44,882 nucleotides of DNA from a phage, in the sequence record PZ445419.1. One strand, given 5' to 3'. A program made the position numbers and the translations under genes. The notes under the pieces are model-generated. The model was not told where the DNA came from and searched no databases. It was given only the letters and a program-made list of their open reading frames with translations. This document shows, piece after piece, positions 10,840 through 44,882 of the stretch. The stretch's first letter is position 1, and each line of letters starts with the position of its first letter.

Positions 10840-11156
10840 GCGGGACAGGCGGGACGTCCCGTTTTGTCCCACCCCTGTGAAACTGCATACCTACTCACTT
10901 CCATTGCATAATATAAAAGCGGGACAAGCGGGACGTCCCGTTTTGTCCCACCCCACAAAAGTGCATACGTATTCGGTTTTCGTGCATAAAACAAACGGGA
11001 CAAAAAGCGGGACAAACACTAGGCGGGACAAAGCGGGACAGCACCCCGTCCCAGCCAGTGCTGCCGCGGTTTTCAGCCGATCGGGACAGCGGGACAGCAC
11101 CCCAGTCTTTCAGACTAGACGGGGGTCAATGGCCCCCCTCGTCTGAGACTGAATAA
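10840..11156. repeat. iteron-like array of GCGGGACA repeats with GGGACGTCCC dyads, ending in a conserved 57-bp palindrome (module copy 1)
   Basis: About 13 GCGGGACA/GGGACG/TGTCCC copies at 9-12 bp spacing; an imperfect 80-bp tandem duplication (10846-10995); the last ~140 bp is homologous to 38930-39069. Confidence 0.8.
11100..11156. repeat. 57-bp palindromic element, copy 1 (identical to 39013-39069)
   Basis: CCCCAGTCTTTCAGACTAGACGGGGGTCAATGGCCCCCCTCGTCTGAGACTGAATAA; nested dyads CAGTCT/AGACTG, AGACG/CGTCT, GGGGG/CCCCC around a TCAATGG loop. Confidence 0.8.
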
Positions 11157-21372: not shown

Positions 21373-23193
21373 ATGGCAGCGGGTACGCTATCGGTAACGA
21401 ATAATAGCAAGGCGGTAGTAGGGGTCGGCACAACGTTTACCGCGTTTAAAGCGGGCGACTTCTTAACGCTGGTGGTAGGACAAGTCCCATACACCGTGGC
21501 AATCGCGTCCATTGAAAGCGCAACCGCGCTCACGCTGGTACTGCCGTTCGACGGCCCAACGGCAACCGGCCTTGCGTGGGATGGCGTTAAGCGCGATACC
21601 ATGTCGCTGGCAACGATGGGCGTTACCGTACAGGCCCAAAAAGCATTGCGCTTGATGATTGCAGATGAAAACAACTGGCGTGCAATCTTCGGCGATGCTG
21701 AAGAAATCACAGTCACGCTCCCGAACGGGCAAGTTATGCAGGGTATGTCGTGGGGCTACCTGTCGTCTTTGCTGAAGGAAGTAGACCCCGTTGAGATGCG
21801 CAACCTGCAACAACAAGCCGCCGCATCGGAAGCAGCCGCGCAAGGATTCCGTAACGAGGCGGAAGGCTTCAAGAACGACGCCAACACCATCAAGACGCAG
21901 ACCAGCCAACTTAAGGCAGATACGCAGGCGATCAAGGACCAGACCACTCAACTTAAGGCAGATACGCAGGCGATCAAGGACCAAACGAATCAGATCAAGA
22001 CTGACACTGGCGTTATTCGTGATGAAGCCAATACCGCGAAGGAGGACGCGCAAGCTGCCCGCACTGCCGCGCAAGGATTTCGCAATGAGGCCGAACAATT
22101 CGCTAATAGTGTTAACCCGGAAAACCTACTTGCGAAGGCCAACAACTTAAGTGATGTTGCGGATGTGGCTGTGGCGCGCGAAAACATTGGTGTAGACCGC
22201 CTAACGCAAAACATAACCAGCGGCGAAACACAAATCAGGACTGCGGCGAAGAATAAATGGATCTTCGTTAAGGAAAATGGCGACTGGGGCGGGTGGGATA
22301 ATGCCAACAATAAAGCCATGCCGCTGCCGATTGCATTCGGTGGTACGGGGCGCGGCGATAACGTCGCCGAGTTCCGCCAATTCAAATCAAACGGCGACAC
22401 CCAAGATGGGTTAATCATTACGCAGAACGGGTCTGGATTTGGTGGTGTATGCTGGGGGGATTCCGCCGATAAAGTACGCTGGCGCATGGGGATTAACGAC
22501 GCCGCGGGTAATTTTAAGTTGCACTCATATGACGCGTCGGGCGCGTACCGCGATACCTTTATGGAGATCTCTGGATCGGGGATAAGCGGCATGGTGTGTC
22601 ATCGAGATATCACGGTCCGCCCAACAGCGACAGCTCCAGTGTTGTCTTTCGTCCTAAACAACGGAAAAGCTACCGTCCCGGCTGGTAACGTCCGCACGAT
22701 GTGGGATACGGTTAGTATCAAGAGTAACCTGATCTATAAATATTTTGAGAAGGGAGACGGCACTGGCTTCACAGTCAACTGGCCCTCATCTGGTGGTGTT
22801 ATTGCCCTCCAGGGTACATCGGGGCGGGACTTTAAGAAAGATATTACCGACGCGGACGTTACAGAAGCGGTTGCACGCATTGAACAAATGCGCATGGTGC
22901 GCTACGTGTATAAGGACGATGTGCAGGAGCGCGTCCGCTTCGGCATCATTGCCGAGGAAGCAGAAGAGATTGCGCCTCAATACATCAAACACCGTGAGGA
23001 GACGTACGATGTGGAGGTGGACCCCGAGACTAACGCTATCATCGGCGGTAAAACCCGAGACAGGCCATCGGTGGACGTAAACCCGATCGTTATGGATTTA
23101 ATGGGGTGCGCACAATATGCGATCGCTGAGTGTAAACGCCTGGCGGCGGAAGTGGAGGATTTGAAAGCCGAGATCGCGGCGTTGAAGAAATAA
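21373..23193 (+). CDS. side tail fibre protein with possible C-terminal intramolecular chaperone domain
   Basis: 606-aa ORF with Q/T/K-rich tandem repeats (QLKADTQAIKDQT x2) and a C-terminal region resembling self-cleaving S74-type fibre chaperone domains; followed by a terminator. Confidence 0.7.
   Translation: MAAGTLSVTNNSKAVVGVGTTFTAFKAGDFLTLVVGQVPYTVAIASIESATALTLVLPFDGPTATGLAWDGVKRDTMSLATMGVTVQAQKALRLMIADENNWRAIFGDAEEITVTLPNGQVMQGMSWGYLSSLLKEVDPVEMRNLQQQAAASEAAAQGFRNEAEGFKNDANTIKTQTSQLKADTQAIKDQTTQLKADTQAIKDQTNQIKTDTGVIRDEANTAKEDAQAARTAAQGFRNEAEQFANSVNPENLLAKANNLSDVADVAVARENIGVDRLTQNITSGETQIRTAAKNKWIFVKENGDWGGWDNANNKAMPLPIAFGGTGRGDNVAEFRQFKSNGDTQDGLIITQNGSGFGGVCWGDSADKVRWRMGINDAAGNFKLHSYDASGAYRDTFMEISGSGISGMVCHRDITVRPTATAPVLSFVLNNGKATVPAGNVRTMWDTVSIKSNLIYKYFEKGDGTGFTVNWPSSGGVIALQGTSGRDFKKDITDADVTEAVARIEQMRMVRYVYKDDVQERVRFGIIAEEAEEIAPQYIKHREETYDVEVDPETNAIIGGKTRDRPSVDVNPIVMDLMGCAQYAIAECKRLAAEVEDLKAEIAALKK
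21906..21989 (+). repeat. 42-bp in-frame tandem duplication inside the tail-fibre gene
   Basis: CAACTTAAGGCAGATACGCAGGCGATCAAGGACCA present twice in tandem with minor changes. Confidence 0.6.
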
Positions 23194-29662: not shown

Positions 29663-31954
29663 TTACTTCCTGTACCTGTACATAATGTCGCCTTCGGCGG
29701 CAAGTGGGAAGCCTTTCGCCCAAATAGGCAGGTCGCACATCAGCGCGCAAAGCTCCTCTGTCGTGTAGTCGTCGGTGTCCGGCACTTCTGTGATCAATTC
29801 ATCATGCACCGATAGAACGATTTCATAGCCCGCAGCTTCAACGCCAGGCATTGACCAGGCGAGAATATCACGGCACAACGCCTGTACTATGTTCTCCGTC
29901 AGTTTGCCGCCGTAGGTATACTGGAAGCCCCACTGGCGCGTCGTCTGATTCTCGCCCTGATATTTAATGCGTGTGCTGGTGCGCTTCTTGCCGGTGTCTT
30001 CGTCAATCTCGGTAGTGACAGACAGCGCTATGCCGGGGTAGCTCATGATGCGCCCCGACGGCAACTCAATTTTCAACCACCACCCCGCGGCGTTCGGGTC
30101 GTCGCGCTCCTCGTCAAAGGTTGGGTCGTGCTTCGCCTTCGTACGGACAATCTTGAGCGCTTTTCTACCGTCCGGGCGAACGTTCGCACCAGCCCAGTAT
30201 GCTTTGCCCGGATTGCGGATTGCACACAACACCGCGTCCTCAAGCTCGGCCCAAAAGGCTACCGTCTTCGGGTGAGCCTCGCGCCACATACGTTTGATCG
30301 CGTCGCAGGTCAGCCAAACGTTTTTAGGCAGTATGTAAGTCGGGCGCTCGTCCTTCTTGCCCGGCTTCGGCGGTCGCTTCGCTTCGTTAATGCGGGCGTA
30401 CTCATAACCCCGTTTAGCCGCTGCCCAAATGTGATCGGGGAATGTGCCCTTCATGACGTCCGCCATCGCGTAAAGGTCGAGGCCCAGGTTTTTAGCGAAC
30501 TGCAAGAACGCAGCCACGCCGCCGCCATAGCCAAGTCCCAACTCACACGCCTTACCAATCTGGCGTAGGTCTTTGCGGTTGGCTTTAATGTATTCCGGGT
30601 CAAGGCCGAACATCTTACCGGCAGTTTCACAATAAATATCGCGACCGGCCCTAAACACCATTAGCGCGGTTTTCTCACCAGCGATCCAGGCGAGGCCACG
30701 CCCTTCCACGTTAGAGTAGTCCGCTACGACAAACTTCTTGCCCTTAGCCGGGATAATGCACCCGCGAACGGTCGAGGCTGTTAGCTTAGATATGTCATAC
30801 GCCCAGTGCGCGGTCCCGCGTAACAGGGAATTGATGCCGTTGGTGAGCATGTGCGACCGGACCCAAAAAGCAACGTCGCTCTCGCCTTCGCGGCGCTTAA
30901 TCTTCCCTTCGTGATCGTCGCTATACTCGCCGCGTGCCAGGTTTTGAGGCTGGAAGCCTTTACCAGCCCAGCGCAGCGTGCGCTTTGCGCCGCCATACTG
31001 AAGACACCCACGGCGGCGACCATCTGCTGATAAGCCGTTAACTAGCGGATTGTACTTAGTCGATGCCGTTGATGACGCACCGAGGCGCATTTCGATAAGC
31101 GCTTTGCCTTCGTCGGGGAAGTCCGGGTCTTCAAGCAGGTCGTTAAGTGTGGATTTCTGCGCGTTGTGGATCGTGAACGCCGGGGCGATATCACGCAGGA
31201 TTGGCAGGAAGTCATTGCCGGTCAGCTTACCGCCAAATCGCTCCCAGGCTTCCTCCTTCAATTCTTCCTTATGCGCCTGCACCGCTTTGATCGCGGCGTT
31301 CGCCAGGTCAACGTCCACATAGAAGCCGCGGTCGTTGATCAACTGGTCGATAAGCAGGATTTCATCTTCCTTCGGAGTATTACCCCAGTCCGGTATGCGC
31401 CAGTAGACCTCACGCATCGCGATAATATCCAGCGCGGCATATCGCAGAAATTTGGCCCATTCTTCAGGGTGAGTCTCGCGAGTGTAGCGGCGGATTTTGT
31501 AAGTCTTAGGGGTCGGCTTACAGAATCGTTTGATCAGCGCCTTGCCTGCCTTATCCTTCGCGTGATCTGCGTCAACGCCCAGCACCTGACACTGCATATC
31601 GAGGCTGCCCGGCAGCGCGTGCCGAAAGGCCATAATCATGGTATCTTCGATCTGGCTTACCGGCAGGTCGATTCCCCACTTCTCACGGATAACCAGGCGG
31701 TCAAACAGGAGGCCGTTAGCCATCACGATTTTTGCTTTCTTGCGGGATACCTGACGGAGCGCCTTGCGCAGTTCACGCGGCATTGTTGGGGATTCAGTGG
31801 CATCCCATGTCTGCACGCGGCCTTCGTCGATGGCGTAGGTGCAAATCATAATCTCGGTGGTTGGGTGCTCTGCGTAGGCGTACGCCCCTACTTTCTTCAG
31901 GTCCACCCCGCTAAATGTCTCGGTGTCGAGAAACAGACGTTCGAAGTCTTTCAT
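29663..31954 (-). CDS. DNA polymerase I-type (family A) with 3'-5' exonuclease domain
   Basis: 763-aa ORF; N-terminal exo motif FLDTETFSG, C-terminal polymerase region including VHDELITEV. Confidence 0.85.
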   Translation of the reverse strand: MKDFERLFLDTETFSGVDLKKVGAYAYAEHPTTEIMICTYAIDEGRVQTWDATESPTMPRELRKALRQVSRKKAKIVMANGLLFDRLVIREKWGIDLPVSQIEDTMIMAFRHALPGSLDMQCQVLGVDADHAKDKAGKALIKRFCKPTPKTYKIRRYTRETHPEEWAKFLRYAALDIIAMREVYWRIPDWGNTPKEDEILLIDQLINDRGFYVDVDLANAAIKAVQAHKEELKEEAWERFGGKLTGNDFLPILRDIAPAFTIHNAQKSTLNDLLEDPDFPDEGKALIEMRLGASSTASTKYNPLVNGLSADGRRRGCLQYGGAKRTLRWAGKGFQPQNLARGEYSDDHEGKIKRREGESDVAFWVRSHMLTNGINSLLRGTAHWAYDISKLTASTVRGCIIPAKGKKFVVADYSNVEGRGLAWIAGEKTALMVFRAGRDIYCETAGKMFGLDPEYIKANRKDLRQIGKACELGLGYGGGVAAFLQFAKNLGLDLYAMADVMKGTFPDHIWAAAKRGYEYARINEAKRPPKPGKKDERPTYILPKNVWLTCDAIKRMWREAHPKTVAFWAELEDAVLCAIRNPGKAYWAGANVRPDGRKALKIVRTKAKHDPTFDEERDDPNAAGWWLKIELPSGRIMSYPGIALSVTTEIDEDTGKKRTSTRIKYQGENQTTRQWGFQYTYGGKLTENIVQALCRDILAWSMPGVEAAGYEIVLSVHDELITEVPDTDDYTTEELCALMCDLPIWAKGFPLAAEGDIMYRYRK

Positions 31955-32121
31955 TGCTTTATCCTCACTACGGCGTCAGCGCTGCCGATCATGGAGAAGA
32001 TGCCGTCGGACAGGGCGATCTCTTCTCCATTGTTGCGAATCTCGGCAACTGTGAAATACTCGCCCAGCAATCTGGACCATACCTGCATTCCGACTTTTAC
32101 TTCGCTGGCTTTAATACGCAT
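31951..32121 (-). CDS. small protein translationally coupled to DNA polymerase (hypothetical)
   Basis: 56-aa ORF MRIKASEVKVGMQVWSRLLGEYFTVAEIRNNGEEIALSDGIFSMIGSADAVVRIKQ absent from the ORF track; its TGA overlaps the polymerase ATG (ATGA). Confidence 0.45.
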   Translation of the reverse strand: MRIKASEVKVGMQVWSRLLGEYFTVAEIRNNGEEIALSDGIFSMIGSADAVVRIKQ

Positions 32122-32136
32122 TTTTCATTGTCCTAT

Positions 32137-32160
32137 TAAAAAGCCCGCATTAAGCGGGCT
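32137..32160 (-). terminator. intrinsic terminator after the ssDNA-binding protein gene
   Basis: Minus strand AGCCCGC-ttaat-GCGGGCT followed by TTTTTAAT, 20 bp after the stop at 32180. Confidence 0.6.
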
Positions 32161-32179
32161 TGAATAGTGGGCTTTGCCC

Positions 32180-32962
32180 TTAACGGCGGCGACGTTTACG
32201 TGGCGCTTCGTCTTCGTCGTCGTCCTCATCTTCGTCATCGCGTGGCTTACGACGCTTGCGAGGTTTTTCATCTTCCTCATCGTCGTCGTCATCGCGGCGC
32301 TTGGATTTCTTGGACTTGCGCGGCTTGTCATCTTCATCATCGTCATCACGACGTTTTGACTTTTTGGACTTGCGCGGTGCTTCGTCTTCGTCGTCGTTGT
32401 CCAGGTCTTCATCGGAGCAAGAAGACCCGCCACCTCCGAAGGCTTCGCCGTCTTCACGGAATCGCAGACCCAGCAAGCCAGCCCCGAGACCCTTGCCGTT
32501 GGTATTGTTCCATGCCCAAATATCAAGGGACACGTTGCAATAACAACCGGAGTAGATCTCCTGGCCTTCAATCTCGTCGCCGTCGATGGTCAGACCTTGT
32601 TCAGTCTGCTTCTCGCCGAGTGACGTTTGAATGATTGGTTGTTTGAACGATTTGGCGTTGATATACAACATGCCTTCGAATTCTTCGGTTACTTCATCGC
32701 GCTCGTCACCGTCGCGAACTGCACATTCCTTAGAATCCTGGGCGTAGTGGCGGTCCATCCACTTATCGGCATTCTTCTCGGATTTCAGCTTGTCGGTGAG
32801 CACTGCGCGTGCTGCCGCTTCCACTTTGTCCACCTGCGGATCTTCTTTATCCAGAAGAATCACGGCACGGTATGCCGGTTTTTGTCCATCCTGTTTAGGG
32901 GTATCACGTTCCCAAATTTTCAGGAAACATACGCGCACATTTTTCAGGTTGACTTTAGCCAT
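32180..32962 (-). CDS. phage ssDNA-binding protein-like (DUF2815-like) with repetitive charged C-terminal tail
   Basis: 260-aa ORF from MAKVNLKNVRVCF (GAGGA RBS); N-terminal globular region resembles DUF2815 proteins; C-terminal ~70 aa alternate basic (RKSKKSKRR) and acidic (DDDDEDD) blocks. Confidence 0.55.
   Translation of the reverse strand: MAKVNLKNVRVCFLKIWERDTPKQDGQKPAYRAVILLDKEDPQVDKVEAAARAVLTDKLKSEKNADKWMDRHYAQDSKECAVRDGDERDEVTEEFEGMLYINAKSFKQPIIQTSLGEKQTEQGLTIDGDEIEGQEIYSGCYCNVSLDIWAWNNTNGKGLGAGLLGLRFREDGEAFGGGGSSCSDEDLDNDDEDEAPRKSKKSKRRDDDDEDDKPRKSKKSKRRDDDDDEEDEKPRKRRKPRDDEDEDDDEDEAPRKRRRR
32195..32400. repeat. imperfect ~57-60-bp tandem repeats encoding the charged C-terminal tail
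   Basis: Repeated GACTTGCGCGG...CTTCATCATCGTC units on the plus strand encode KPRKSKKSKRRDDDD(E)DD repeats on the minus strand. Confidence 0.6.
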
Positions 32963-33027
32963 TTTCCAATTCCTCATTTTCACATGCATCGGGGTTATTG
33001 GAAGCCACCCCGTTCGGCTTGGTTGCC

Positions 33028-33056
33028 AATTTACTTGGTTGCGCCTGAGCGGTCAA
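33028..33056 (-). promoter_or_regulatory. candidate sigma70-type promoter for the ssDNA-binding protein gene with ATTGGTTGC-family motifs
   Basis: Minus strand TTGACC-17 nt-TAAATT; motif copies at 33035-33043 (in spacer) and 33019-33027 (just after the -10). Confidence 0.45.
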
Positions 33057-33295
33057 GCATTTTCATTAAAAAGATTTCTGGTCACGTAGTTGGTAGCGTT
33101 CTCGATCCAGCTTAACGGCGGGCGGTTGATGTTCTTCTCCACCCAATCGACGGCAGCTTCGCTATAGCCGTCATCCAACCAGCGGGTCGGATGTCGAATC
33201 ATCCACGCCACCATTAATACGCCTTGTACGCAATGCAGGATAAAGCCCAGCGCGCCGATAACAAACATCAATAAGATTGCGAATACTTTATTCAT
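33053..33295 (-). CDS. small membrane protein (hypothetical)
   Basis: 80-aa ORF with N-terminal TM segment FAILLMFVIGALGFILHCV. Confidence 0.5.
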   Translation of the reverse strand: MNKVFAILLMFVIGALGFILHCVQGVLMVAWMIRHPTRWLDDGYSEAAVDWVEKNINRPPLSWIENATNYVTRNLFNENA

Positions 33296-34718
33296 TGCTT
33301 AAGTCCTCGTCAGTAGCTTCAGACCACGCAGGGCGCGGGTCGTCGATTGGTGCTAATACCGGTTTTGCCGGTGCGCGCGTGATTTTATCACACAGCTTCG
33401 CCCACACTTTCGGTTTTTCGTCCTTCAGTACCGTCTCGGCATCCGTAGGGCTGAGCAATGTTTCTTTGTACATCACATCGCGCTTGATCCGGGCCTTCGT
33501 GAAGATTTCAATCACTTCGCTTTCGTCTGCCCACTTGCGAATCCCTTCCTTACCGGCAACCATCTTGAGGCCCAGCGATTCGCCATCGCCCGCCATAACC
33601 GCTTTGAATACCGCTGACTCGATAGCCTTGATGTGCTGGCGCATTGCGTCAAGACCTTCATAAGCCTTGCGCAGTTCCGCGGCGGTCATAGCGCCGTGGG
33701 CCGCTTCTTTCTTGCCACGCTTCGCACGTCGTGCCGCTTTGCGAGCTTCGCGGGCCATATTGCGGTCGTGATTGGCGCATTCTTCCTCTGTCGCAATACT
33801 CACGTCGTCGCCCAGGTCTTCGTCTGTTGCCGTTGGTGGGGTCATCGTGTCGATTGCAGCCTTAGCGCGGGCGCTACACTGATCCGCAAATCTGCACCAC
33901 TGACACGCATCAACGCTCGGTCGGAAGTCGGCGCGGGTGAGTCCCTTTTTGCCTCGGGCGTACGCTTCCAGCGCGGCGATAGCGCGCTTGGATGCAAACT
34001 TCGCGAATATCTCCAGGGCTTCTACCGAAATATCCCACTCCGACGCCCCGCCGCAATACGGCTGGAAGATAACCAGGCGCACGGTCGTGATGTCGTACAT
34101 GGATTGCAGCTTGCGCAGCAGGCCGAGCGCGTACAACATAAGCTGTTTGTTTTCTTTCGCCTCGACCTTATGCCGCCCAGTCTTAAGGTCGCCAACAATC
34201 AGCATGTACGTGCCGTCGGTCTTCTTCATGACCATGACCATATCGGCAGTACCGAACGTTTTAATCCTGTTGCCGTCGATCTCGAAGCCAGAGTGAAGGA
34301 CGCGGGTCAGGTCGGCGCGCATCTCAAGCTGAACAAACTCCGCCACTTCGAGGAGCGGTCGCCAGTGGTCGATGTATGCATCGCACTGTTTCACCATATC
34401 GTCGTTGACCAGTACGCCGCCTTTCGGTGCTTTCGGGTGTGCCTTTACTGGCCCCTTTCCTTCGTTCTCGACGTAACACCCTTTATACGTCTTTGCGGTT
34501 ATCAGCTTTTCACCGGCGATAATGCGGTTTAGCACGACTTCAGATACGGTGTGCATACTCGTACCGTTAATCGCGGCTTGCCCGGATTCGTTTGGGATAT
34601 CTTTTTCTACCACCAGAGCGGCAGGGCAACCCATCCATTTTTTAGCACCGGACGGCCCGAGTAATGAGTGTTCGGTATTGCTACCGGATTGCGTCTTACG
34701 TTTTGGTTTAATCGCCAT
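33288..34718 (-). CDS. PD-(D/E)XK nuclease (DUF2800 / Cas4-RecB-like) with Cys cluster
   Basis: 476-aa ORF with D...D-L-K/E-x-K-type core (GTADMVMV, GDLKTG, ENKQLMLYALG) and C-terminal CQWCRFADQC typical of Fe-S Cas4-like nucleases. Confidence 0.6.
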   Translation of the reverse strand: MAIKPKRKTQSGSNTEHSLLGPSGAKKWMGCPAALVVEKDIPNESGQAAINGTSMHTVSEVVLNRIIAGEKLITAKTYKGCYVENEGKGPVKAHPKAPKGGVLVNDDMVKQCDAYIDHWRPLLEVAEFVQLEMRADLTRVLHSGFEIDGNRIKTFGTADMVMVMKKTDGTYMLIVGDLKTGRHKVEAKENKQLMLYALGLLRKLQSMYDITTVRLVIFQPYCGGASEWDISVEALEIFAKFASKRAIAALEAYARGKKGLTRADFRPSVDACQWCRFADQCSARAKAAIDTMTPPTATDEDLGDDVSIATEEECANHDRNMAREARKAARRAKRGKKEAAHGAMTAAELRKAYEGLDAMRQHIKAIESAVFKAVMAGDGESLGLKMVAGKEGIRKWADESEVIEIFTKARIKRDVMYKETLLSPTDAETVLKDEKPKVWAKLCDKITRAPAKPVLAPIDDPRPAWSEATDEDLSNE

Positions 34719-35206: not shown

Positions 35207-35740
35207 TTAATCTTCCAGTTCGAAATAGGTTTCGACGATTTCTTTTAAATCTTTGTGGAAGTCTTCAACGTCGTCGTCTTCCAGCTTGGCGATGGATTTA
35301 ATTTCGAACGCGTCCAGCAGATCATCAAATTCGTCGTTCGCATCATCATCATCACCGCCTGCAATGATAGCGGCATACTGTTTGATTTCGTCGCGCATCT
35401 CTGCCAGCGGGTCGGCATCTTTCTTACCTTTGCCTTTCGCTTTTTTAGCCTTAGCCGGTTTTTCGTCTTCGGCGTCTTCGTCGTCGTCATCTTCTACGAC
35501 TTCTTTTTTGGCCTTACCTTTAGACTTGGTTTCTTTTGCAGCGCCTTTTTTCGCTTTAGGCGTATCTTCGACTTCGTCCTGATCATCGTCTTCGACTTCG
35601 GTCTCCGGCTTGGCCTTGCCTTTCTTAGCGGTGCCGTTTGCTTTCGGTTCTACGGCCGCGCCAGCAGTTTCATAATGCTTAGCGATGACTTCCAGTGCTA
35701 CTACGCCGCGAGTGATCAGGTTTACGATTTGCTCAAACAT
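35207..35740 (-). CDS. highly charged Lys/Glu/Asp-block protein (hypothetical; first gene of leftward operon)
   Basis: 177-aa ORF from ATG 35740 (GGAG RBS); alternating K-rich (KAKKAKGKGKK) and D/E-rich (VEDDDDEDAEDE) blocks; track ORF starts further upstream without RBS. Confidence 0.55.
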   Translation of the reverse strand: MFEQIVNLITRGVVALEVIAKHYETAGAAVEPKANGTAKKGKAKPETEVEDDDQDEVEDTPKAKKGAAKETKSKGKAKKEVVEDDDDEDAEDEKPAKAKKAKGKGKKDADPLAEMRDEIKQYAAIIAGGDDDDANDEFDDLLDAFEIKSIAKLEDDDVEDFHKDLKEIVETYFELED

Positions 35741-35936
35741 GGTATATCTCCGATTGGTTAAGTTTAGGTGTCGGCAGTTAACTTCGTCGGTGGCCTTAAC
35801 ATATTGCCAGGTTACGCGTTCTCCCGTTCGGGTAGTGGACCTGGTTATATAATCACGGTTGGGAATCCTGACACTTCGATCCGGCCCCTGCGTTGCCCCT
35901 CTCCAGTTTGCGTCCTGCATCCTGTCGACGGAGTGA

Positions 35937-38867: not shown

Positions 38868-38907
38868 ATTATTATGAATAGTTATGCAATAAAACTGCAT
38901 AAAGTAA

Positions 38908-39069
38908 GCGGGACAGAAAGCGGGACAGACATGGGGCGGGACAAAGCGGGACAGCACCCCCGTCCCGCCCCGGATGGCGCGGCCTGGCGTGGGGCGGGAC
39001 AAGCGGGACAAACCCCAGTCTTTCAGACTAGACGGGGGTCAATGGCCCCCCTCGTCTGAGACTGAATAA
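38908..39069. repeat. iteron-like GCGGGACA array ending in the conserved 57-bp palindrome (module copy 2)
   Basis: Six direct GCGGGACA/CGGGACA copies plus an inverted GTCCCG copy; 38930-39069 is homologous to the 3' part of 10840-11156. Confidence 0.8.
39013..39069. repeat. 57-bp palindromic element, copy 2 (identical to 11100-11156)
   Basis: Same 57-nt sequence as copy 1, base for base. Confidence 0.8.
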
Positions 39070-44246: not shown

Positions 44247-44331
44247 GTGCCTGTTATAATCCCCCCTTAGATGGCTGGGCCGTCTCCTATGTTGCCGATG
44301 GTCGGCGCATATGAACAAAAGGGCATATATC

Positions 44332-44882
44332 ATGGCAGAAATCAAAGTTAAGGGTCGACGCGCCAAACTGGACGGACGAGTAGCAGTTACCCCGCGCCGT
44401 AAACCAGGAGAGCAAACCGAGCATACCAATCTCGGACCTGAAATCGAGTACGGTAAGCGCCGTAAAGGCGGCAAATGTGGACGCCCTACTGACTACAGAT
44501 CCGTTTACTGCGACCAGCTTCGCCGCTATTTTGCCGACGCAGTCGCATGGCAGGTCAACTACTCCGATAAAGGCGCTGCGCAAGTAATCCCCCGCAACAA
44601 AATGCCAACCTTCGGTCGATTTGCCGCTGAAATCGGCGTAGGCGTAGCTTGCCTGTACCGCTGGGCGCGAGCACATGAGGAGTTTGCCGAAGCGATGGCG
44701 GACGCAATGGAACTGCAGAAAACTTTCCTGATGGAAGCCGGTGGCGTGACCATCGCGGCAGGCTTCGCTACGTTCCTGCTTAAAGCAAACCACGGCGTCC
44801 GCGACGATGTGCCGCTGGATGACGACGAAGATGATAACGGCGACGTCGTAGTGGAACCTACCGGCAAAGGCCAGGGTGAATA
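44332..44882 (+). CDS. terS: terminase small subunit (3' end runs off the window; stop completed by base 1 if circular)
   Basis: At least 183 codons; HTH-like FGRFAAEIGVGVACLYRWARAHEEF typical of small terminase DNA-binding domains; acidic C-terminus; final TA plus base 1 gives TAA overlapping the terL ATG. Confidence 0.65.
   Translation, partial: MAEIKVKGRRAKLDGRVAVTPRRKPGEQTEHTNLGPEIEYGKRRKGGKCGRPTDYRSVYCDQLRRYFADAVAWQVNYSDKGAAQVIPRNKMPTFGRFAAEIGVGVACLYRWARAHEEFAEAMADAMELQKTFLMEAGGVTIAAGFATFLLKANHGVRDDVPLDDDEDDNGDVVVEPTGKGQGE

Follow-up and report, generated by a model that had tools for sequence, protein, structure and literature searches.

In SSBs, the single-stranded DNA-binding proteins, the C-terminal tail is a handle for autoregulation and for recruitment of replication and repair partners. 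ORF6 of Enterobacter phage Enc34, an SSB of known structure (5odj, 5odk and 5odl; Cernooka et al. 2017, PMC5686142), has a tail of 29 residues that includes 16 Asp or Glu and no basic block. Without its tail this protein binds dsDNA, and within the crystal its C-termini bridge neighbouring molecules (PMC5686142). T7 gp2.5 (1je5) has a uniformly acidic tail without repeats, through which its DNA binding is modulated and the polymerase and helicase are bound; the C-terminal Phe is required for polymerase binding. In T4 gp32, a basic N-terminal motif, LAST, binds the neighbouring molecule and so confers cooperativity (PMC12893549), and an acidic C-terminal domain serves both to mask the DNA site and to bind partners (PMC12893549, PMC5892887). 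SSB of the E. coli type belongs to another OB-fold family and ends in a DDDIPF tip. Its linker is rich in Gly, Gln and Pro, and uncharged. Among eukaryotic proteins, arginine-rich mixed-charge domains (R-MCDs) condense in cells in a length-dependent manner; added negative charge abolishes this condensation, and lysine cannot replace arginine (Greig et al., bioRxiv 10.1101/771592).

The window analysed here, 44,882 nt in length (PZ445419.1), is the complete genome of Escherichia phage Oekolampad (Bas18, Dhillonvirus). Its gene bas18_0043 was already annotated in GenBank as 'putative single-stranded DNA binding protein'. A sequence-only reading of the window had placed an SSB-like protein with a repetitive, mixed-charge tail at the 3' end of this minus-strand ORF, and both the coordinates and the SSB assignment are borne out. 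Pfam model PF10991 (Enc34_ssDNA-bd, formerly DUF2815) scores 109.8 bits on the protein, where the cut-off is 26 (1.6e-31), with residues 12-202 matched to positions 2-173 of the 176-position profile. PHROG 112, 'Gp2.5-like SSB and annealing protein', matches at 3e-57, and the PDB sequence matches are 4jg2, 4klk and 5odj, all at about 1e-11. The AlphaFold2 model of the core has pLDDT >90 across residues 1-172. In Foldseek searches this core finds 4klk (5e-12), the Enc34 SSB 5odl (5.6e-12), 5odj and 4jg2, with E-values that span 5e-12 to 6e-11, and T7 gp2.5 (1je5) at 1.5e-6; target-normalised TM-scores range from 0.51 to 0.75. Contact residues Trp150, Asn154, Arg112 and Tyr30 of the Enc34 protein align with W149, N153, K104 and F13 of Bas18, while Tyr156 aligns with an Asn and Lys46 is shifted by two positions. 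The conserved set comprises an aromatic residue where strand beta-4 begins, a polar one four places further on, and a basic residue in the cleft. Core identity is only about 22%. The two proteins have in common their Pfam family and fold, the stacking Trp, the kink-stabilising Asn, an Arg or Lys in the cleft, an unstructured C-terminal segment that opens acidic, and a nuclease-SSB-polymerase neighbourhood. T7 gp2.5 resembles the Bas18 protein as an OB-fold variant with a disordered charged tail, and as a replicative SSB of a phage that carries its own polymerase and helicase. By profile, variant OB fold, DNA-contact residues and location in a replication module, ORF 32180-32989(-) is the replicative SSB of a Dhillonvirus, with an OB fold of the Enc34/T7-gp2.5 type. 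The tail departs from the canonical form of PF10991 proteins, however, in having four basic blocks and an RRRR end.

SSB of the E. coli type is similar to the Bas18 protein in having a long disordered region between its OB fold and its C-terminal tip, but the Bas18 tip is not hydrophobic. A bacterial-type SSB with a DDDIPF tip is ruled out, as PF00436 is absent among the Pfam matches at E <=0.01 and the C-terminus is basic. E. coli SSB structures reach only E-values above 1 in Foldseek.

The true start codon is likely the ATG at 32962, which gives a product of 260 residues. It is preceded, 8 nt upstream, by GAGGA, whereas the annotated ATG at 32989 lacks a Shine-Dalgarno sequence, and the same MAKVNL start is used by orthologues, including the SSBs of phages SECphi4 and SECphi18. 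Table 1 lists the features of the gene and its surroundings. The order nuclease-SSB-PolA is conserved in a contig from a distant relative and in phages SETP7, K1ind2 and Acinetobacter phage 4316. The hairpin past the stop codon has a predicted RNA fold of -24.6 kcal/mol (z = -4.5), with none of 200 shuffles equally stable, and the annotation of phage CS16 has a 'terminator' at the corresponding position.

Table 1. Positions of the SSB gene, the parts of its tail, and neighbouring features in PZ445419.1
Feature	Position	Strand	Remarks
Family A DNA polymerase, 763 aa	29663..31954	-	candidate SSB partner
56-aa gene (phrog_10102)	31951..32121	-	between SSB and polymerase; stop overlaps polymerase start (ATGA)
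Intrinsic-terminator-like hairpin, AAGCCCGC-TTAAT-GCGGGCTT then TTTAAT	32133..32161	-	19 nt past SSB stop
SSB gene bas18_0043	32180..32989	-	269 aa as annotated; ORF list, GenBank annotation
Terminal basic block U4, APRKRRRR	32183..32206	-	net +6; stop TAA at 32180-32182
19-nt exact direct repeat, copy 1, GCTTCGTCTTCGTCGTCGT (+ strand)	32205..32223	.	partner 174 bp away
Unit U3, KPRKRRKPRDDEDEDDDEDE	32207..32266	-	net -4; 20 aa, 60 bp
Unit U2, KPRKSKKSKRRDDDDDEEDE	32267..32326	-	net -1; 20 aa, 60 bp
Unit U1, APRKSKKSKRRDDDDEDD	32327..32380	-	net 0; 18 aa, 54 bp
19-nt exact direct repeat, copy 2	32379..32397	.	partner of copy at 32205..32223
Acidic block A0, SDEDLDNDDEDE	32381..32416	-	net -9; counterpart of canonical acidic tail
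Folded OB-fold core, residues 1-182 (260-aa form)	32417..32962	-	AlphaFold2, Foldseek
Probable true SSB start, ATG (MAKVNL...)	32960..32962	-	gives 260-aa product
Sigma-70-like promoter match, TTGACC-17-TAAATT	33028..33056	-	9/12; consensus match only, upstream of SSB
PD-(D/E)XK (DUF2800-type) nuclease	33288..34718	-	upstream of SSB

The final 78 residues comprise one acidic block (A0), three units of 18-20 residues, each a basic stretch joined to an acidic one, and a terminal APRKRRRR. Tandem units had been recognized from the letters alone, but with sizes of ~20 aa and ~57-60 bp; the actual sizes are 18, 20 and 20 aa, encoded by 54, 60 and 60 bp. A0 aligns with the D-D-[FL]-x-D-L opening of canonical tails and is present in every Dhillonvirus sequence read. 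U1 and U2 have a 14-residue stretch in common, PRKSKKSKRRDDDD, in which 8 of 14 codons differ, all of them silently. Tandem Repeats Finder reports a period of 54 with 2.3 copies and 73% matches (score 147) at 32272-32397, and a repeat search pairs U1 with U2 over 54 nt (74% identity) and finds a second pair of 45 nt, 174 bp apart (78%). The periodicity is greater than expected by chance: best-offset identity in the protein is 0.48, a value attained by none of 5000 residue shuffles (0.28+-0.03), and in the DNA it is 0.56, attained by none of 2000 codon shuffles (0.43+-0.02). The DNA value does not exceed that of synonymous-codon shuffles, 1384 of 2000 of which reach it; the repeat is therefore kept at the protein level, its copies having diverged at silent sites. 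Recent slippage of near-perfect DNA repeats is rejected, because in DNA the units resemble one another no more than their peptide sequence demands.

The tail is a blocky polyampholyte, predicted to be disordered. Its charged-residue fraction is 0.82, with 28 Lys or Arg, and its net charge per residue is -0.10. Charge segregation, computed as kappa with our own implementation, is 0.54, which none of 5000 shuffles attains (0.10+-0.04). AlphaFold2 gives residues 178-260 a pLDDT of ~50 and no secondary structure. The net charge is -7 for the tail, -8 for the core, and about -15 for the whole protein. A single alpha-helix (ER/K) domain is excluded by the predicted coil over residues 188-260, by the Pro in each unit, and by the abundance of Asp. 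Throughout the family, tails contain 2428 Asp versus 1389 Glu, and a Pro is present at 90% of 417 acid-to-basic junctions; in the Bas18 tail it is found at every one.

Variation was examined in 25 Dhillonvirus SSB genes plus that of SECphi4; 24 loci are complete, and one, on an IMG/VR contig, breaks inside the repeat. In the comparison of repeat number across relatives that had been proposed as a check, tails vary, with one to four basic blocks. All indels are multiples of 3 and in unit register, and deletion end points coincide with short direct repeats of up to 19 nt. Deletion between the two 19-nt repeats of Table 1 yields the allele of phage welsh, and the tail of phage TheodorHerzl lacks exactly U3. 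Entire internal units are gained and lost by recombination between short direct repeats shared among units. The expectation of a slippage-prone length holds as far as unit number varies, but the word slippage is only loosely apt for units whose DNA identity is just 74-78%. In phage welsh the three internal units are all missing and a single basic block is left, yet this phage is a propagated isolate. Viability thus does not depend on the internal units, and their contribution may be small. The invariant parts of complete tails are A0 and the end: PRKRRRR-stop terminates all 24 complete loci and SECphi4. The residue that precedes the Pro of this tip is Ala everywhere except in SECphi4, which has KPRKRRRR. 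Among 23 distinct Dhillonvirus genes, dN/dS is 0.075 for the tail and 0.044 for the core, and the tail sequence is accordingly under purifying selection, which acts strongly on its point substitutions.

It is hardly credible that these patterns are an artefact of assembly collapse or expansion, of a wrong reading frame, or of an overlapping gene as the true target of selection. The repeat does lead to frameshifted and mis-started SSB gene models in databases; two entries are frameshifted, the IMG/VR contig breaks as described, and other frames are open. The spurious ORFs on both strands that had been attributed to the repeat are indeed present, at 32125..32571(-), 32167..32634(+), 32174..32359(+) and 32256..32543(+). 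Against an artefact, frame, stop codon and terminator are identical in 24 of 24 complete loci from independent isolates, and the register of the indels is that of the units. An overlapping or alternative-frame gene as the target of selection is excluded, since units differ from one another, as phages do, at third positions of the SSB frame. Assembly error as the source of copy-number differences is excluded as well, the longest exact repeat being 19 nt, not long enough to confuse assemblers, and the alleles being consistent across independent isolates.

The SSB of SECphi4 (QJI52528.1), a phage of the same genus, differs from that of Bas18 at one of the first 182 residues and has a tail of the same type, although its allele differs: there are three basic blocks, the tip being fused with U3, and the length is 241 aa. 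Expression of the SECphi4 protein triggers Retron-Eco8, and SSB carries mutations in phages escaping Retron-Eco8 and ShosTA (Stokar-Avihail et al., bioRxiv 10.1101/2022.08.27.505566). In Retron-Eco8 escapers of SECphi4 and SECphi18 given there, a point mutation has hit intergenic sequence upstream of SSB, which fits a promoter at that place. In Table S2 of the same preprint, as available, escapers of SECphi4 and SECphi18 from Retron-Eco8 or ShosTA carry no tail mutations, all changes being in the core or promoter. The idea that tail polymorphism reflects escape from SSB-sensing defences thus finds no support in this portion of the source. On a role of the tail in replication these mutations have no bearing either way. 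The preprint omitted 'flexible C-terminal residues' from its structural figure without discussing them, and a later paper states that SECphi4 SSB binds the retron msdDNA. Our search of the literature on this SSB family, on Dhillonvirus and Bas18, and on mixed-charge SSB tails found no description of the tail.

For the wider family, a core-only sample of 147 representative clusters, unbiased as to tail, shows 129 (88%) without a basic block, that is, with a canonical short acidic tail. The premise that classical SSB tails are uniformly acidic is accurate, therefore, for most of PF10991. Tails without basic blocks have a hydrophobic tip in 126 of 128 cases. In a neighbour-joining tree, which is crude (155 columns) and took about half its sequences from a search biased towards similar tails, mixed-charge tails mark a clade of enterobacterial siphophages, Jerseyvirus and Kagunavirus among them, and a second clade, whose tails have up to nine blocks. 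Jerseyvirus SETP7, Kagunavirus K1ind2 and Serratia phage Otaku, with 37-58% identity in the core, have Arg-rich ends like that of Bas18, and in SETP7 and K1ind2 the entire tail is one acidic block plus the Arg-rich end. Repeats of the second clade precede a retained canonical tip (DDDV, DDDY or EIPF); in three distant relatives, mixed-charge repeats go together with a ...DDEIPF end like that of the E. coli protein. Alignment of the second clade against genome contigs found, among the matches listed, canonical-tail relatives only. Tail length in 259 family members runs from 25 to 150 aa. Each added residue brings +0.43 acidic and +0.36 basic residues and a net-charge change of only -0.066. Net tail charge stays at about -6 to -16; canonical tails average -8.5.

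Such balance would also be expected if the tails were tolerated low-complexity expansions, in which unit duplications drift and the sole constraint is that basic stretches be balanced by acidic residues. The near-independence of net charge from length, the differing copy number of units among viable isolates, and the scatter of mixed-charge tails over several core-tree lineages, with 14 parsimony changes, all agree with this explanation. It is nevertheless quite improbable. Purifying selection on unit residues comes close in strength to that on the folded core, silent divergence between identical peptide units is near saturation, the terminal motif is constant, and a three-block architecture is kept in relatives P0017-P0043 at only 45-50% core identity.

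We propose instead, giving it an even chance of being correct, that the tail is an electrostatic module for autoregulation and for SSB-SSB cooperativity, in which a basic tip replaces the canonical one. The proposal is drawn from sequence statistics and from analogy to the systems described above. The tail would do what a gp2.5-type tail does in regulation and interaction, but with another electrostatic mechanism. A0 would shield the basic DNA-binding cleft, and so confer ssDNA specificity, as does the acidic tail in Enc34 ORF6 and T7 gp2.5. The basic blocks, chiefly the arginine tip, might pair with acidic blocks or core surfaces of adjacent SSB molecules, with the DNA backbone, or both. Such pairing could produce head-to-tail cooperativity on ssDNA akin to that conferred by the LAST motif. 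T4 gp32 likewise combines a short Lys/Arg/Ser-rich element with an acidic one in a single SSB, but its fold is unrelated and its elements are unrepeated and at opposite ends; RKSKKSKRR in the Bas18 tail resembles KRKST of gp32 by composition only. The basic tip may stand in for the acidic-hydrophobic tip with which other SSBs recruit partners, and the internal units would be near-neutral modules that alter reach and valency at constant net charge. AlphaFold2 docks no segment of the tail confidently. A net-negative tail on a net-negative core would repel its neighbours unless pairing is local, a consideration that runs against cooperativity.

A different reading of the same tip, possible though on the doubtful side, makes the arginine-rich C-terminus a short linear motif that docks on an acidic surface of a phage replisome protein, in the way that gp2.5 and E. 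coli SSB use their acidic-hydrophobic tip, with the internal units as a flexible spacer of variable length. Candidate partners encoded in the replisome gene cluster are the family A polymerase, one of the helicases, the PD-(D/E)XK nuclease and the 56-aa protein. PRKRRRR is the most constant part of the tail, kept even where all internal units are lost; Arg-rich ends recur in Jerseyvirus, Kagunavirus and Serratia phage Otaku; and second-clade repeats, placed before a retained canonical tip, behave like a linker. However, a genome scan for possible partners with a highly acidic tail to complement this one produced weak candidates only, and neither the observed dN/dS nor conserved, Pro-punctuated blocks would be expected of sequence that is nothing but spacer. 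Tip docking and the electrostatic module can both hold.

Condensation had been suggested when the tail was first noticed: the blocky tail would act as a scaffold that drives phase separation or ssDNA condensation and thereby creates a replication compartment. The Bas18 tail is like eukaryotic R-MCDs, whose repeat number tunes their behaviour, in being disordered, very highly charged and segregated into blocks. The N-terminal regions of nucleolin and Nopp140, with their alternating acidic and basic nucleolar repeats, are also comparable. High charge fraction, strong segregation and multivalent repeats, the length-dependent condensation of R-MCDs, and the rank of SSB among the most abundant phage proteins are in keeping with a scaffold. 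But the Bas18 tail has no homology to R-MCDs and belongs to a bacterial virus. The net negative charge of tail and whole protein argues against simple self-coacervation, added negative charge having abolished condensation of R-MCDs (bioRxiv 10.1101/771592). Internal blocks in Dhillonvirus tails are rich in lysine, which could not replace arginine in the same study. Natural alleles that have but one basic block are viable, and so are the forms found in Jerseyvirus and Kagunavirus. We therefore regard a condensate scaffold as improbable.

In its broadest form, the electrostatic proposal would be that a large clade of gp2.5-type SSBs, from hundreds of cultured Salmonella and E. coli siphophages of Dhillonvirus, Jerseyvirus and Kagunavirus, has swapped the near-universal acidic-hydrophobic recruitment tip for an arginine tip and expandable mixed-charge repeats, by which SSB molecules on ssDNA would zip up head-to-tail and form a cooperative coat or a condensate. 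We consider this extension unlikely as it stands; if true, it would represent a previously unrecognised route to SSB cooperativity and to the organisation of a viral replisome, naturally tuned by repeat number. The cultured enterobacterial phages that depart from the acidic-tail rule form a well-populated group, and their departure follows a pattern maintained by selection. A natural allelic series, with one to four basic blocks on otherwise near-identical proteins, is available in the BASEL and other collections, and an orthologue has already been cloned as a trigger of Retron-Eco8. Effects of tail charge pattern on SSB cooperativity, on discrimination between ssDNA and dsDNA, and on choice of partner are therefore directly testable.

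By megablast of positions 32100-33100, the sequence matches Escherichia phage Oekolampad (Bas18, MZ501095.1 / NC_073089.1, genus Dhillonvirus) at 100% identity, and the window is the 44,882 bp genome of that phage rotated by 551 nt. The tail belongs to the product of bas18_0043, whose public annotation as an SSB (single-stranded DNA binding protein) is correct. A PD-(D/E)XK nuclease gene lies on one side of it; on the other are a 56-aa gene and then the family A DNA polymerase gene. The start codon as annotated, ATG 32989, lacks an upstream Shine-Dalgarno sequence, and the GenBank product probably carries 9 residues too many. The strong hairpin and T-tract directly 3' of the stop, absent from the list of the consensus scan, suggest partial termination of SSB transcripts ahead of the polymerase gene.

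In its core the protein is a regular T7-type SSB. This core matches Pfam PF10991 (Enc34_ssDNA-bd, formerly DUF2815) at 109.8 bits and PHROG 112 'Gp2.5-like' at 3e-57. AlphaFold2, run on a 75-sequence alignment, models residues 1-172 with pLDDT above 90, and in a structure search this model matches DUF2815 structures and Enc34 ORF6 (E about 1e-11 to 1e-12) as well as T7 gp2.5 (E 1.5e-6). W149, N153 and K104 align with Enc34 Trp150, Asn154 and Arg112, picked out by Cernooka et al. as shared among T7-type SSBs (PMC5686142). For tail residues 178-260 the same model shows a pLDDT near 50, without any secondary structure.

The tail consists of one acidic block, SDEDLDNDDEDE, then three internal units of 18, 20 and 20 residues, each a proline-punctuated basic block plus an acidic block, and finally APRKRRRR. 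Of its residues 82% are charged, with a net charge of -7, and the charges are strongly segregated (kappa 0.54 vs 0.10±0.04 in shuffles). Tandem Repeats Finder reports a period of 54 bp (score 147), and no residue shuffle (0 of 5000) or codon shuffle (0 of 2000) matched the periodicity, which bears out the sequence-only reading of a charged tandem-repeat tail with alternating basic and acidic blocks. The DNA periodicity, by comparison, is not above chance once the peptide is kept, being reached in 1384 of 2000 synonymous-codon shuffles. The first two units share 74% DNA identity and the peptide PRKSKKSKRRDDDD, for which 8 of 14 codons differ, every difference silent. The repeat thus exists at the protein level, and its DNA copies are old. 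Overlapping other-frame ORFs, also noted in that reading, do appear in the ORF list; they are by-products of GAN, AAR and CGN codon runs. The identity and anatomy of the SSB and its tail are near certain.

We compared the gene in 25 Dhillonvirus loci (Oekolampad, 12 other GenBank records and 12 of the 13 IMG/VR contigs), with two more SSB sequences taken from a paper's supplementary data. Tail length does vary, as had been expected of such repeats, with one to four basic blocks. Oekolampad and most others have four; TheodorHerzl, GeorgBuechner, AV129, Henu5_1, BF9, Envy, HK578-like and SECphi4 have three, through at least six distinct deletions; EP23 has two; and phage welsh, with a 202-aa SSB, has one (DEDLDNDDEDEAPRKRRRR). 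All tail indels are in frame and in unit register, with end points within sequence common to the units, and a 19-nt exact repeat flanks exactly the 174 bp absent from welsh. Because the flanking tail DNA of TheodorHerzl and welsh is identical to that of Oekolampad, these deletions are recent relative to point divergence. The initial acidic block and the terminal PRKRRRR are kept in every complete Dhillonvirus tail. Among 23 distinct genes, pairwise Nei-Gojobori dN/dS is 0.044 for the core and 0.075 for the tail, so that purifying selection acts on the residue sequence of the disordered tail nearly as strongly as on the fold. That value and the conserved architecture make it very unlikely that the tail is a tolerated low-complexity expansion with charge balance as its sole constraint; that it is an artefact is extremely improbable.

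Some individual records are irregular. One IMG/VR contig (IMGVR_UViG_3300045988_003101) ends within the SSB repeat, its final codons translating to AVSYTHLRAHET, which presumably represents read-through into a Nextera sequencing adapter. In Escherichia phage vB_EcoS-22664B1 (P0005, NCBI) and a second family protein, P0008, the tail is recorded in another frame (…AMTKMKHRARLRSPNVVMT…GFLLGQ), open across the entire repeat and beyond the normal stop, so that it is basic and non-acidic; single-base sequencing or assembly errors are the probable cause.

A full-length search of the wider family gave 120 cluster representatives, nearly all mixed-charge, a sample biased to proteins sharing tail words. 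Because such a search favors query-like tails, an exhaustive HMMER search was run with the core only, yielding 147 representatives with a complete core. Here 129 (88%) have tails without a basic block, averaging 25±9 residues and a net charge of -8.4; after cleaning, 126 of 128 such tails end in a hydrophobic tip. Only eight of the 147 have at least two basic blocks. Across 259 usable proteins, tails run from about 25 to 150 residues with 0 to 9 basic blocks; acidic (+0.43) and basic (+0.36) residues rise together per tail residue, and the accompanying shift in net charge is only from about -8.5 to -15. Proline is present at 90% of 417 acid-to-basic junctions.

On a neighbor-joining core tree, mixed-charge tails form three groups: a clade of 81, of enterobacterial-phage type, with 1-4 blocks and ends mostly basic or ...YEDDEE; a clade of 27, in which as many as 9 near-identical units (for example DDDEDEKPRRRRSR) occur and most members retain a canonical tip, for example DDDV, DDDY or EIPF; and about a dozen scattered lineages. 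The state requires 14 parsimony changes, vs about 86 with random labels; the tree being crude and the sample partly biased, this is only suggestive of several origins. Core relatives occur in 684 cultured-phage records (354 Salmonella, 244 Escherichia, others). The minimal form, a single acidic block followed by TPRRERRRNR or APRRERRRR, is found in Jerseyvirus SETP7 and Kagunavirus K1ind2; three blocks are present in Serratia phage Otaku and a canonical tail in Acinetobacter phage 4316, and a distant 8-block relative sits in the same nuclease-SSB-polymerase-SNF2 helicase module. Six phage or prophage members (P0083, P0113, P0118, P0202, P0245, P0255) end in ...DD(E/D)IPF, the E. coli SSB tip, which suggests mimicry to borrow host partner proteins; this type of tip is lost from the Dhillonvirus clade. 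Two outliers, P0175 and P0193, have very long tails in other mixed-charge styles, one rich in RD/RG/RS (...DRGRDRRDDRGGDRGRDRRDD..., 166 aa) and the other built of DDDDDRGSRSRSR repeats without proline, resembling eukaryotic arginine-rich mixed-charge or RS domains.

The Dhillonvirus tail, mixed in charge, ending in arginines and variable in unit number, departs from the canonical SSB tail. Enc34 ORF6 binds ssDNA and has a 29-residue tail with 16 Asp/Glu; removing 21 tail residues kept ssDNA binding and unmasked dsDNA binding, and neither basic blocks nor repeats come up in that paper (PMC5686142). SECphi4 and SECphi18 are Dhillonviruses, and a comparison of the SECphi4 SSB with the Oekolampad core shows a one-residue difference. 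According to the available portion of the SSB study, expressed SECphi4 SSB activates Retron-Eco8, whose escapers carry SSB T56P or a change in the intergenic region upstream, and ShosTA escapers carry T21P, F95L, F106V or N152H; the SSB coding changes among the escape mutations in that portion all lie in the core, and 'flexible C-terminal residues' are left out of the authors' structural figure (bioRxiv 10.1101/2022.08.27.505566). Our literature search found no published description or test of this tail.

What the data show is a gp2.5-type SSB whose disordered, modular mixed-charge tail is under selection and equals canonical tails in net charge. We propose, at about even confidence overall, that this tail acts as an electrostatic module. 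Tentatively, and with less than even confidence, the proximal acidic block would play its canonical role, masking the basic DNA cleft so that the protein stays ssDNA-specific. The basic blocks, above all the constant arginine tip, may pair with neighboring molecules at their acidic blocks or surfaces, or with DNA phosphates, giving head-to-tail cooperativity like that conferred on T4 gp32 by its basic LAST motif (PMC12893549), and would take over from the acidic-hydrophobic tip as interaction determinant. The internal units, with net charges of 0, -1 and -4, are close to neutral, so they would change reach and valency and leave charge unchanged. A rather doubtful alternative, compatible with the electrostatic module, makes the tail a motif that docks on a replisome protein of the phage, the units serving as spacer. 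The condensing or phase-separating role proposed in the sequence-only reading is unlikely, as the tail is net negative, its blocks are Lys-rich and one-block alleles are viable.

Features of the SSB region and other repeats and charged stretches in the window
Feature	Coordinates	Strand	Details
SSB gene bas18_0043, 'putative single-stranded DNA binding protein'	32180..32989	-	ORF and annotation
Probable SSB start ATG	32962 (32960-32989 region)	-	GAGGA 8 nt upstream; start in orthologues; 260-aa protein
Hairpin and T-tract	32133-32161	-	-24.6 kcal/mol, z = -4.5
19-nt exact repeat in tail	32205-32223 and 32379-32397		flanks 174 bp absent from welsh
56-aa gene, phrog_10102	31951-32121	-	stop overlaps polymerase start (ATGA)
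79-bp tandem repeat (2.1 copies) and short arrays	10841-11003, 11082-11098, 38906-38929, 38994-39011		
42-bp tandem repeat	21889-21983		2.3 copies, 92% matches; in frame, 14 codons
Basic stretch RKAARRAKRGKK	33288-34718	-	PD-(D/E)XK nuclease, residue 326
Acidic stretch PETEVEDDDQDE	35207-35920	-	bas18_0048, residue 105
Acidic stretch RDDVPLDDDEDD	44311-44882	+	ORF running to window end, residue 164

Outside the tail, a whole-genome scan found only three strongly charged 12-residue stretches, which are possible electrostatic partners of it. In the available part of Table S2 of the SSB study, the 56-aa gene of SECphi18 and SECphi6 carries an E21 frameshift in escapers among the Borvo rows, adjoining polymerase point mutants (bioRxiv 10.1101/2022.08.27.505566); its product may assist the polymerase as an accessory factor, or may belong to what Borvo senses. 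In two distinct genome regions, the 79-bp repeat and the short arrays are all composed of the motif (A)AGCGGGAC(A), and they look like clustered putative binding sites for a regulator or origin-binding protein. The 42-bp repeat presumably lies inside a structural gene.

The mixed-charge SSB tail is real, conserved and widespread in well-known phage genera and, as far as our searches show, undescribed. The function proposed for it is what we infer; the tail itself should surprise SSB specialists and is easy to test.
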